Below are positions 37,641 to 43,327 of a stretch of DNA of 64,000 nt, piece by piece. A program made the translations under genes and the position numbers. This DNA comes from Octopus vulgaris (lineage: Eukaryota). The notes under the pieces are model-generated. The model had not been told where the DNA came from and did no database searches. It was given only the letters and a program-made list of their open reading frames with translations. Each line of letters starts with the position of its first letter. The stretch's first letter is position 1. The stretch covers positions 138,260,001-138,324,000 of the forward strand of contig OX597814.1 in NCBI GenBank assembly GCA_951406725.2, written 5' to 3'.

Positions 37641-37933
37641 TCTTACGACTTCAGACAATTTAACTTATCTTGGCTGGCGTATTTTGAAAAAAATGCCTTT
37701 GCGGCAGACGAAAACAACAGTGTTAACATGGCAGCGGTCAAAGGCGAAAAGACCAGTTGAACAGCAGTCACGTGAGAGGACATGTATTGATGTATATAAA
37801 TGTATATATATATGAATATATATATATGTATATATATACATATATACATGGCGGTGCCCCAGCATGGCCACAGCTCATAAGCTGAAACTGGAAAAATCAA
37901 AAATCAAATCAAAATCATATTTATGTATATATT

Positions 37934-37984
<51 letters not shown>

Positions 37985-37994
<10 letters not shown>

Positions 37995-38723
37995 AAAGGT
38001 TTGAAAATGCAATTTAAACGATGTTTATTTACTTAACCGGTTTCACTCTTTGTTAAAAAGATTGTCAAAAGTAACATTGAATATTATGGGTTCAAAAAAA
38101 GTTTTTTACATAATTGTCACATTGAATATTATGAATTCAAAAATGTTTTTTTATACATAATTGTCACATTACATGTATAAATATAGTATAAAAAAGTTCA
38201 ATAGTGTGATGAGAATATTTGGAAAAATTGGCAGAAAAGAATAAAACAAATATATTATTGGAAATTTGGTTGCGTTAATTATTGGTTGTCGCAAATTGTC
38301 ACATTACATGTATATATATACAGTCTTTGGTAGAAATGACATGTTAAAGACATAAGGAAGTGTAATAGTTTGGTGAGAAAGCTTGTAATATTGACAGAGA
38401 AAATTAAAATGGATATTTTAGACATCTCAGAATATTTTGAATCGAAGGCGAGAATTTGTTTTTTACTGACCTGTTTGTTTTAGCAGAAAAGTTGAATTGA
38501 GAGAAAAAAGATATGTACCCAATTTGGTTTATACTTCCCCTTCAAGCATCAGTGACTTTGGGGTTATTGGGAGGTGAGTATGCGGGTGTGAATAGATGTG
38601 TCCGTGTGCCTGCTGGTCAGACAGCGTCTGTTTGTCACACACATATATACACACACACACACAACAACAATACACACACACACATAGTATACACACACAC
38701 ACCACATACACACAACACACACA
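37985..38723 (-). repeat. Inverted pseudo-LTR (left arm)
   Basis: Reverse complement of 42311-43050. By eye, 2 substitutions (38116/42919 and 38227/42808) and one homopolymer indel (~38504/42525). Confidence 0.95.
38029..38074 (-). ncRNA. Hammerhead ribozyme motif (U3-A8) in left pseudo-LTR
   Basis: Exact reverse complement of 42961-43006. Confidence 0.7.
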
Positions 38724-40916
38724 AGAGGACTAAAATTCACCCCAACTCCGCAATACCCTAACCTGAGGGAAATACAGGATGACATCTCACACTTTTGCAG
38801 AAAATTACGCCTCACAGAGGAATTCTTTGACAGGAAAACTAATAATAACGACGAATCAATGGTCCGTAACAAAAGCAACTATAATCCCATAAAAGGCAAA
38901 AACAAAACCTTAGACAAATTTTGCGATTACATCTCAAACTTCCCTTATGGTGAACTCCCACAACCTAAACTCAAACCCAACACCAGTAAAAGAGAATGGG
39001 AAATCATACATACGCTACGAGACAATCACAACGTCACAATAAAGGAAGCTGATAAGGGTAGTACGGTCGTTGTTATGAATACTGAGCAATATAAAAACTC
39101 TGTATCTCTCCTTTTAGAGGATACCACATACTATGAGAGAGTAGTCGACTACCAGCAATCCAAAACAATGACCAAACTGAAGGCACTCATTTACCAACAC
39201 CGGAATGACTTGACAGCAAAGGAATGCGACTACATTACTAAATTTAATTGCAAAACCAGCACACTCTATGGGCTTCCAAAAATACACAAGAGTCAAATTA
39301 TCACAGAAGCTTGCAAAAAGTCCACTTCAACCTGCATCACTATACCACATCCCACTGATCTCAAACTGAGACCAATAGTGGCAGGCCCAAGTTGTGAAAC
39401 ACACAGACTTAGCAACTTTATAGATATCATCTTAAAGCCAATACTGAAACACATTCCAAGTATTGTAAGAGATGACCTGGACCTATTAAATCATCTCCCC
39501 AAACATGCCGATAAAGACACCTTAATCGTTTCTTTTGATGTTATTAATCTTTACACCACAATCCCACATGAATATGGACTGGAAGCCATTAAATTCTGGC
39601 TGGATAAATATCCCAATGAGATCCCGGAAAGAATTAAAAAAGAATTCATAATTGAGGGCCTCAAATTTATTCTGCAAAACAACTTCATGTATTTCCACAA
39701 CAACACTTACAGACAGGTCTCAGGAACTGCAATGGGTACGAAAGTTGCACCTACCTATGCAAACCTGGTGATGGCCTACCTGGAATCACATATCTATGAA
39801 AAATCCAAATATAAGTACGGCCAGTCTTTCCACAAATACCTGTTGGAGAACTGGAAACGCTACTTAGATGATTGCCTCATCCTATGGTCCCACACACTCG
39901 ACCAACTTAAAGACTTCAAAAACCTTATCAACAGTGTTAATAACAACATTCAATTCACAATGGAATATAGTCAGGACCAACTCCCTTTTCTTGACATCCT
40001 AATCATTAAAAAAGGCGTCAACATTGAAACTGACATCCATTACAAACCCACTGACTCTAAACAATACCTTCTATTCACCTCCAATCACCCAAAACACACA
40101 AAGACAAATATCCCCTTCAACCTAGCGAGAAGAATCTGCACTATTGTCTCAAATGACACAACACGAAATAGAAGACTCCGGGAACTAAGGGCAATTCTTC
40201 TCGAAAGACATTACCCGGCATCACTAGTAGACAACGGAATAGAACGGGCCAAATCAATCAACATTCAAGACCTACGAAAACCCAAACACATCCACAGTTC
40301 AGTAAATAGCCTCCCCTATCTCTCAACACACAACCCAAGGAATGCAGAAGCTTACACTATTATATACAACAACATTCCACAACTAAATCAAGACCCACGC
40401 CTGAAAAAAATACTGGCAGCTCATAAAATAATAAAAAGTAAGAGACAACCTAAATCCCTAAAAAACCTCCTCACCAACGCAAAATTACACAACACAAACC
40501 CACCGCCCACCATCAAAAAATGTGGTCGCCCCAATTGCAAGACCTGCATCCACCTCATTGAGGGATCGTCGTACAAGTTCCACTCGGGACACACATTCAT
40601 CATAAAAAATAATTTCACGTGCGCATCAAAAAATTTACTCTACGTCATAAGGTGTGAAGGATGCCACGAAGACTACATAGGGCAAACGAGCCTTACCCTC
40701 AGAGAAAGAATGACAGTTCACCGACAACAACTGAGGGACCCCTCCACAAGACAGATACCACTAAGTGGACACTTAGACCTTTGTGCACACAATAAGTCCC
40801 CCAAATTCTTAGTCTTCCCACTATACCAATGCTCGGACAACACCACAGACCAAACACGAATAAATAAGGAAAGTAATCTTATTCAAAAATACAGACCACA
40901 ACTAAACATACTCTAA
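38724..40916 (+). CDS. Penelope-like reverse transcriptase + GIY-YIG endonuclease (N-terminally truncated; first ATG at 38859)
   Basis: PLE motifs RGLKFTPTP..FCRKLRL (in frame upstream of the ATG), KEADKG, YGLPKIHK, LRPIV, SFDVINLYT, GTAMGTKVAPTYANL, WKRYLDD, LPFLD and HYKPTD. Cys linker CGRPNCKTC. GIY-YIG region LLYVIRCEGCHEDYIGQT..RERMTVHR..GHL. No internal stops. Confidence 0.95.
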   Translation, partial: RGLKFTPTPQYPNLREIQDDISHFCRKLRLTEEFFDRKTNNNDESMVRNKSNYNPIKGKNKTLDKFCDYISNFPYGELPQPKLKPNTSKREWEIIHTLRDNHNVTIKEADKGSTVVVMNTEQYKNSVSLLLEDTTYYERVVDYQQSKTMTKLKALIYQHRNDLTAKECDYITKFNCKTSTLYGLPKIHKSQIITEACKKSTSTCITIPHPTDLKLRPIVAGPSCETHRLSNFIDIILKPILKHIPSIVRDDLDLLNHLPKHADKDTLIVSFDVINLYTTIPHEYGLEAIKFWLDKYPNEIPERIKKEFIIEGLKFILQNNFMYFHNNTYRQVSGTAMGTKVAPTYANLVMAYLESHIYEKSKYKYGQSFHKYLLENWKRYLDDCLILWSHTLDQLKDFKNLINSVNNNIQFTMEYSQDQLPFLDILIIKKGVNIETDIHYKPTDSKQYLLFTSNHPKHTKTNIPFNLARRICTIVSNDTTRNRRLRELRAILLERHYPASLVDNGIERAKSINIQDLRKPKHIHSSVNSLPYLSTHNPRNAEAYTIIYNNIPQLNQDPRLKKILAAHKIIKSKRQPKSLKNLLTNAKLHNTNPPPTIKKCGRPNCKTCIHLIEGSSYKFHSGHTFIIKNNFTCASKNLLYVIRCEGCHEDYIGQTSLTLRERMTVHRQQLRDPSTRQIPLSGHLDLCAHNKSPKFLVFPLYQCSDNTTDQTRINKESNLIQKYRPQLNIL

Positions 40917-41049
40917 CATACCCCCTGGGCACACATCCAGAGCAGGCACACAGGGGCACGCGCACACTCACAGCATATCGTGCGGGTGGGCACATGCGCG
41001 CATCGGCACGCATAGGACACACTAGCGGGCATTGACCGCACACATACGT

Positions 41050-41326
41050 GGCACGCACACGCATGCATTATATATATGTAGGTTATGTATGTGTGTGAGT
41101 GTTGTGTGTGTGTGTGTGAGTGTGCACGTTGTGTGTGTGTGTGTGCGCGTGTGTTTATGTGTGTGTGTGTGTGTGCACTGTGTGCGTGTGTGTATGTGTG
41201 TGTGTGTGCGCGCGTTGTGTGTGTGTGTGCACGTGTGTATATATGTGTGTGTGTGTGCGTGTGTGTGTGTATGTGTGTGTGTGTGAGCATTGTGTACGAG
41301 TGTATGTATTTACATGTGTATTTGTT

Positions 41327-41360
<34 letters not shown>

Positions 41361-42159
41361 CTGTGTGTGTATATGCATGGTATGTGTGTATATGTGAGTA
41401 CATTGTTTGTGTGTGTGTGCGGTATGTAGAGATATATTTGAGTGTGTACACTATAGGTTTGTATTTTTTGTGTGTGTGGGTGTGTGTGTGTGAATTTTAT
41501 ATATATATGTGTGTGTATGTGTGTGAAAAAATATATGTATGTGCATGTATGTATGTATGTATATGTGTATATATATATATATATGTGTATATATATATAT
41601 GTGTGTGTGTATGTGTGTGTGTGTATATATATTTTCATGTATATGGGTGTATAAACATGTGCATTATTTGCATGCGCATTGTGTATATGTATATTGTATG
41701 TATGTGTATTGTATATGTATGTGTACAATTAAGTGTATATATGTGTGTATGTGTGCATTGTATATATGTATATTGTAAGTGTGCTATATATACATGAATA
41801 CATGTATATACGTTGCGTGTATATATATGTATGCATTGTGTATGTATGTTATGTGTGTGTGTGTCTATATATTTTATATGTATGCGTACGTGTATGTGTA
41901 TGCATTGTATGTATGTATATTGTGTGTATATGTGGTATATCTATGTATGTGTATGTAAACACTATTTATATGTATATATGTATATATGTATATGCATTGT
42001 CTATATATATATATATTATATGTATGTATTGCGTATGTATATTGCATGCATATATTGTGTATGTGTATTATATACATGCTGTGTATGTGTATTGTATGTG
42101 TATATATATGCTAGGTGTATTTGTGTGATATTTATATTATGTATATATGTGTGCGTGTG

Positions 42160-42196
<37 letters not shown>

Positions 42197-42400
42197 GTGT
42201 GTGTATGTTTTATATATGTGTGTATATTATATATAAATACATGTTATATTTGTGTGCTGTGTGTATATATTATATATGTGGGTGCGTTGTGTGTGTGTGT
42301 GTTCTGTGTGTGTGTGTGTTGTGTGTATGTGGTGTGTGTGTGTATACTATGTGTGTGTGTGTATTGTTGTTGTGTGTGTGTGTGTATATATGTGTGTGAC
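41050..42400. repeat. Compound imperfect (TG)/(TA) low-complexity tract in the PLE 3' UTR
   Basis: Lies between the ORF stop and the pseudo-LTR. Its distal ~90 bp is copied in the left arm. Confidence 0.85.
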
Positions 42401-43050
42401 AAACAGACGCTGTCTGACCAGCAGGCACACGGACACATCTATTCACACCCGCATACTCACCTCCCAATAACCCCAAAGTCACTGATGCTTGAAGGGGAAG
42501 TATAAACCAAATTGGGTACATATCTTTTTTTCTCTCAATTCAACTTTTCTGCTAAAACAAACAGGTCAGTAAAAAACAAATTCTCGCCTTCGATTCAAAA
42601 TATTCTGAGATGTCTAAAATATCCATTTTAATTTTCTCTGTCAATATTACAAGCTTTCTCACCAAACTATTACACTTCCTTATGTCTTTAACATGTCATT
42701 TCTACCAAAGACTGTATATATATACATGTAATGTGACAATTTGCGACAACCAATAATTAACGCAACCAAATTTCCAATAATATATTTGTTTTATTCTTTT
42801 CTGCCAACTTTTCCAAATATTCTCATCACACTATTGAACTTTTTTATACTATATTTATACATGTAATGTGACAATTATGTATAAAAAAACATTTTTGAAT
42901 TCATAATATTCAATGTGATAATTATGTAAAAAACTTTTTTTGAACCCATAATATTCAATGTTACTTTTGACAATCTTTTTAACAAAGAGTGAAACCGGTT
43001 AAGTAAATAAACATCGTTTAAATTGCATTTTCAAACCTTTTTTCATATAT
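42311..43050 (+). repeat. 3' pseudo-LTR (right arm)
   Basis: See left arm. Contains short internal repeats (AATGTGACAATT), the HHR and AATAAA at 43006. Confidence 0.95.
42961..43006 (+). ncRNA. Minimal type I hammerhead ribozyme with compensatory U3-A8 core
   Basis: TTACTT TTGACAA T CTTTTT AAC AAAGAG T GAAA CC GG T T AAGTAA: 6-bp helix I, U.U plus 6-bp helix II, palindromic ACCGGU helix III. Predicted cleavage after 43000 (GUU). Sense to the ORF. Confidence 0.72.
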
Positions 43051-43083
43051 AATCCCACTCGTGCGATACCCCACAACTCAACT

Positions 43084-43127
<44 letters not shown>

Positions 43128-43272
43128 GTATTTATGCATGTATATATGTGTATATATTTATATTTATGCATATATGTGTATATATATAGATGTGTATATA
43201 TATATATATATATATATGATTGATTGATTGATTGATTCTAGTTTCAGCTTATGAGCTGTGGCCATGCTGGGG

Positions 43273-43327
<55 letters not shown>

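Follow-up and report, generated by a model that had tools for sequence, protein, structure and literature searches.

Does the 46-base segment at 42961-43006, on the plus strand of the window (the whole 64,000-nucleotide stretch of octopus DNA analysed here), form a hammerhead ribozyme with an altered core, and could it act? We give a probability of about 0.8 to the following reading: the segment belongs to the minimal type I hammerheads, it terminates a Penelope-like element (PLE) with a Neptune-type linker, and it is likely to self-cleave 3' of U43000, at a slow rate and by dimer action. The letters given for this segment in the first-pass annotation match the sequence exactly, and they lay out as a motif with a U3-A8 core, U10.1.U11.1 and a GUU triplet, for which there is also comparative support. 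Helix I is a perfect 6-bp complement between 42961-42966 and 43001-43006 (95% of cells paired in seven distinct family copies) and encloses the core U3 U4 G5 A6 C7 A8 A9 (UUGACAA, 42967-42973), seen also in family copies, followed by helix II (42974-42990) and by G12 A13 A14 A15.1 running into the palindrome ACCGGU (42991-42999 together), the predicted intermolecular helix III. Helix II proper (42975-42989) has 6 bp, including one G.U, and a 3-nt loop, and a G42987A variant among family copies preserves its pair; at its base stand U10.1 (42974) and U11.1 (42990), so that the U.U described there is borne out by the sequence as well as by the family loci. The GAAA (42991-42994) shares A42994 with ACCGGU (42994-42999), which RNAcofold pairs between two motif copies. 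H17 is U43000, and cleavage is predicted 3' of this base, which varies among subfamilies as U, A or C and is rarely G. All the core elements of a minimal type I hammerhead are present, U4 G5 A6 N7, A9 and G12 A13 A14, as are A15.1-U16.1 and an NUH triplet, here GUU. The Watson-Crick 3-8 pair is present as U3-A8, the literal C3-G8 being absent from the window motif, and the usual though not obligatory G10.1-C11.1 pair is missing, replaced by U.U at every distinct family-A locus (12 of 12). The motif lies beside AATAAA, as had been noted: this signal (43006-43011) overlaps the last base of the helix I 3' arm, and the 2.2-kb 3' UTR contains no other. The duplicate placed in an inverted arm is likewise real, the minus-strand copy at 38029-38074 being identical to 42961-43006.

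The host is a young, 5'-truncated PLE. Its open frame (38688-40916, plus strand, 742 aa stop to stop) encodes a reverse transcriptase (RT) followed by a C-terminal endonuclease of GIY-YIG type (EN; RVT_1 E 1e-7, GIY-YIG E 1.5e-5), the order expected of an EN+ PLE, and element sequence begins at about 38724, inside this frame, ORF1 and the start of the RT frame having been lost through 5' truncation. A microsatellite-rich 3' UTR (40917-43051, plus strand) is part of the element and is 96-99% identical in other copies; within it, a TG/TA microsatellite-like stretch of about 1.4 kb (40917-42311) is copied along with the element. The element 3' end (42311-43051, plus strand) matches an inverted, 5'-truncated copy of itself, a pseudo-LTR arm at 37984-38723 on the minus strand, over 741 bp at 99.6% identity, the length of this arm varying among genomic copies. 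A 38-bp 'tail' (43052-43089, plus strand) follows and is succeeded by (TA)n. At all 30 fetched loci (TA)n follows the element end and the 38-bp tail is found at one insertion end only. According to the relevant section of PMC8557442, partial tandem or inverted 5'-truncated copies and a one-end tail of 30-40 bp are PLE hallmarks, and both are seen here. The translation also contains a C-X4-C-X2-C linker, which fits the CX2-5CxxC before the endonuclease in Neptune; such a linker is given there as common to Neptune and Nematis, and together with the (TA)n target it suggests the Neptune clade. The family is young, because the best 40 of 920 candidates are 100% identical over 106 bases. Similar sequence stands in inverted orientation at both insertion ends (37829-37991 and 43131-43319), part of it being a short dispersed repeat that recurs in other parts of the window.

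Could so short a match be an accident of composition? A descriptor search permitting C3-G8 or U3-A8 returned two matches in the window, both of them the motifs already noted, and with the same descriptor dinucleotide-Markov controls had none in 100 of 100 sequences. Rfam at gathering score gives nothing in the window, and none of its hammerhead families appears at E<=10 within 42300-43100, in agreement with the claim that standard searches overlook the motif. This blank might equally be taken to mean that the match arose by chance in AT-rich sequence, aided by the element's short repeats with TGACAAT upstream, since short degenerate repeats sharing the heptamer do sit at about 42850-42961. We regard this as highly improbable: besides the empty controls there is an 85-fold excess above reversed patterns, the same core is embedded in unrelated helix sequences of other families, and covariation across those families already contradicts it. 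Degenerate direct repeats of 27-55 bp with TGACAAT extend over 42715-42961, upstream of the hammerhead, and in one other copy (L110) the core and helix II are partly duplicated locally.

Across the genome the pattern YTGANRA-N14-28-GAAACCGGT has 7,464 matches, and its reversed form 236. The U3-A8 form, UUGANAA...GAAACCGGU, accounts for about 12,000 matches against about 140 in the control, in at least seven families; with spacers of 14-28 there are about 6,762 against 97 for the reversed control (by subtraction) and with spacers of 6-13 there are 5,262 against 44, two counts that overlap slightly, since some matches with N7 = G belong to a family in which they pick out an outer register, 9 nt outside the true core. 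C3-G8 is found 365 times (38 in the control) with spacers of 14-28, shorter spacers adding 72 (19), and the mismatched cores U3-G8 and C3-A8 132 (46) and 205 times (55), respectively. Pairing between positions 3 and 8 is thus enriched, with 327 C-G above control where 27 would be expected under independence and an odds ratio of 169 that counts copies, not independent events. This enrichment of paired 3-8 states upholds the proposal that U3-A8 is a compensatory form of C3-G8. A-to-I editing at A8 was considered and rejected, as U3-G8 shows no excess over C3-A8 (86 versus 150 above control). G17 is avoided, being present in 81 of the approximately 6,762 U3-A8 matches.

U3-A8 does not, on these counts, dominate the genome. 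The canonical pattern CTGANGA-N8-26-GAAASSTH has 25,573 matches against 3,626 in the control, so that, after subtraction of the control, some 22,000 canonical C3-G8 cores with a 2-nt palindrome compare with about 12,000 for U3-A8. The dominance is confined to the ACCGGU class (about 12,024 versus 437 C3-G8), and the coupling of core to palindrome is shown in one direction only, because the U3-A8 count is one of motifs with ACCGGU. Of the minimal hammerhead motifs counted here, about one in three would escape a search restricted to CUGANGA or made with Rfam.

The canonical CUGANGA...GAAACGU-type matches fall into several families, L198-L208 being examples, and none of the 11 fetched regions has an RT of its own. 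We rejected a link between a canonical C3-G8 family and a related RT, an RT match being found in only one of 20 regions (L199); there the RT, 99% identical to that of family C1, precedes a mutated U3-A8 motif of its own, and it is therefore a nested insertion. Elsewhere a tandem repeat of about 360 bp carries one C3-G8 hammerhead per unit, in the manner of a retrozyme (L102-L104, L121, L122, L189-L197). In the L122 array all three fetched units have C3.A8, while L085 combines U3-A8 with a helix II related to theirs; this pair of loci may record a stepwise swap of the core inside one lineage.

We examined 90 loci, 30 of them selected for U.U; four with C3 cores were dropped, leaving 86 with a central U3-A8 match (78 distinct) that sort into seven families with differing helix sequences. 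Each of the seven has upstream RT-EN homology at one locus or more; from family to family the proteins share 33-70% identity, apart from the pair C1 and C2 (81-85%). Helices I and II show two-sided compensating changes between families, and N7 and H17 vary. In helix I the first pair is mostly U-A (54) or G-C (25) and the second A-U (44) or U-A (35), the third being C-G, A-U or U-A across the seven families; the mean number of helix I pairs is 3.87 of 5, against 2.19 +/- 0.13 in 1,000 shuffles that leave relatedness uncontrolled. Position 10.1/11.1, in this sample partly chosen for U.U, is U.U in 43 loci, G-C in 20, A-U in 10, G.U in five and otherwise in eight, and an RT tree, which is unrooted and covers the families of this genome only, places U.U on two distinct branches. 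H17 is U in 36, A in 34, C in 14 and G in two, which, with the genome-wide avoidance of G17, is consistent with the cut that had been predicted 3' of 43000. In the contigs of four public runs the listed motif substitutions fall only in loop II, at H17 (A or C) or as pair-keeping A/G changes (G.U or A-U), none of those listed lying in the core. In U3-A8 families represented by L130, L133, L150, L151 and L156, a helix II of no more than 1-2 bp (G-C followed by C-G or U-A) goes with a perfect helix I of 6-7 bp. Taken together, the comparative counts and the covariation between families are strong evidence, at the level of sequence, that the minimal type I hammerhead is real, and they uphold its assignment to a PLE.

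Within the window family the picture is different from what had been foreseen. Covariation had been expected among family copies and is absent there, appearing between families only: C3-G8 is found in none of the 100 listed copies (of 1,950), and the seven distinct copies contain no two-sided covariation, their changes being one-sided. Among the same 100 listed copies UUGACAA is kept in 88 and UUGANAA in 92, and G5A is found in five, equal to the changes at N7 (5/100), a frequency such as neutral decay gives.

How such a motif could be brought to act is suggested by the intact relatives of the window copy. We fetched 11 regions picked for having the element 5' end, and in these full-length copies the order is hammerhead, tail, a 448-aa ORF1, the RT-EN frame, a 2.1-kb 3' UTR and a second hammerhead. 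Nine of the 11 contain same-strand motif pairs and a tenth a mutated second copy, with a spacing of 5.66-5.95 kb in eight regions and of 6.9 kb in one rearranged copy. As full-length copies carry hammerheads at both ends, read-through RNA would hold two motifs about 5.8 kb apart, and these same-strand pairs are consistent with the suggestion that a palindromic helix III serves dimer action. By analogy with published PLE hammerheads, the two ACCGGU palindromes on one such RNA would pair to form helix III, U3-A8 would stand in for the C3-G8 core pair, slow cleavage of the two motifs would set free a unit RNA that starts 120 nt before the ORF1 AUG (the position of the predicted cut in full-length copies), and this unit may be circularised. 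In full-length copies the palindromic helix III is accompanied by another motif that one transcript would include; the window copy does not show this arrangement. It is also without the upstream direct repeat and, since it is 5'-truncated and its second motif lies on the opposite strand, it has no cis partner and is probably an inert passenger; in a transcript spanning both arms the motif would be expected to lie hidden within a long RNA duplex. We think it quite likely that the lineage is selected and weakly active, and we lean towards the view that precisely this sequence, as a dimer, would cleave measurably in vitro; action from the window locus itself would be a surprise.

The same full-length copies show a further arrangement. 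ORF1, to which no Pfam family is assigned above cut-off, has a -1 overlap with the RT frame at the heptamer U UUU UUA G (L109, G000:C26; L087; L184), which is absent from the truncated window copy and retained in each of the three families checked. Family B (L087) has stops immediately upstream in the RT frame, and between the slippery site and the RT homology there is no AUG. The overlap is likely to be a programmed -1 frameshift; no stable stimulator is predicted. PMC8557442 describes canonical EN+ PLEs as single-ORF, but the legend to Fig. 1 in that paper refers to a frameshift in ORF1 for some PLE type; among the papers listed by our searches none deals specifically with a PLE ORF1/RT frameshift.

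The active dimer fold of the window motif is calculated at -13.1 kcal/mol, against which the predicted minimum stands at -20.5, a fold that joins 42961-42968 to 42985-42992 and U17 to A14; in other families the corresponding gap is 0-10.8 kcal/mol, all of these being nearest-neighbour energies that leave out core stabilisation. This competing fold, favoured by 7.4 kcal/mol, together with the combination of three weakening features (U3-A8, U.U and GUU), could mean that the hammerhead shape is kept in this family with negligible catalysis, persisting for RNA dimerising or packaging through the palindrome or as a decaying relic. An insertion with a mismatched U3.G8 core points the same way. A full-length insertion with U3.G8 at both ends occurs at L111 and L112 (G000:C17, about 11 Mb apart), and RNA with this core has probably transposed once (L111); independent transposition of a U3.G8 subfamily was rejected, as the two share their 3' flank at 98.5% identity and are one insertion duplicated with its flank. 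The anole Poseidon PAc ribozyme, too, was dispensable for insertion in vitro in the assay reported in PMC11167929, with no RNA ends at its site, and PMC4209133 leaves room for roles other than cleavage. Against this, the avoidance of G17 and the Watson-Crick 3-8 pair, held across families whose proteins are only 33-70% identical, are constraints of catalysis and not of simple pairing, and we consider negligible catalysis unlikely, preferring slow dimer cleavage.

Neither odd feature of the motif is new, and the novelty implied by the first-pass annotation does not survive: U3-A8 in PLE minimal hammerheads is in PMC4209133 (2014) and natural U3-A8 and U10.1-U11.1 are in PMC3088659 (2011), as passages of both state, so both are already published and the motif adds no new ribozyme class. 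Among the closest counterparts is the minimal hammerhead of the Schistosoma mansoni Cercyon PLE, for which Cervera and De la Pena (PMC4209133) give U3-A8 and about 1,300 matches. Like the present motif it is of type I, lies in a PLE terminal repeat, has a palindromic helix III, U3-A8 and predicted dimer action, and is found mostly in truncated copies; unlike it, the octopus motif has the 6-nt palindrome ACCGGU, a 6-bp helix I and U.U in place of G10.1-C11.1, in another host, with U3-A8 fixed in at least seven families and about 12,000 matches. The same passages describe G10.1-C11.1 as highly conserved in PLE motifs and PLE minimal hammerheads as poor cleavers, even when dimeric. Perreault and co-workers (PMC3088659) present U3-A8 as natural, its activity in vitro having been shown earlier, and U10.1-U11.1 likewise, U-U being the best tolerated mismatch. 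Their variants share this U3-A8 covariation and U10.1-U11.1 mismatch with ours; the passage on them mentions neither the two changes together in a single motif nor a PLE setting, both of which hold in the octopus. The axolotl HHR_Amex2 (PMC7229834), also of type I with U.U at the base of helix II, is reported to cleave, 22% in an hour as a monomer and better as a dimer; it differs in having a 2-bp helix III, loop contacts and a non-coding tandem repeat (retrozyme) as its setting. Anole PAc resembles the octopus motif in being a PLE hammerhead with the tail signature, its cleavage needing the 3-8 pair, but PMC11167929 gives it a C3-G8 core that overlaps the ORF start, while here the motif ends a 2.1-kb 3' UTR and the predicted cut falls 120 nt before ORF1. 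The dimer model is summarised in a review (PMC6765202), and tandem retrozymes are linked to PLE repeats in a preprint (bioRxiv 10.64898/2026.07.22.740005), again as given in the parts cited. Among the literature matches listed for octopus hammerheads no title concerns cephalopod ribozymes.

The size of the U3-A8 lineage and the ORF1/RT slippery site are the most useful by-products of this analysis, and the conserved -1 site may merit further attention. More tentatively, we suggest that a still active lineage of at least seven families and about 12,000 motifs has fixed U3-A8 together with the 6-nt ACCGGU, and that in the window family the ribozyme has been tuned down, through U.U, GUU and the competing hairpin, to a slow or switchable cutter; we hold this to be possible but doubtful. 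If it is true, the lineage is a natural allelic series bearing on whether hammerhead cleavage matters for PLE retrotransposition. In any case a young family with intact full-length copies, alongside sister families differing at 10.1/11.1 and H17, is convenient material for a test.
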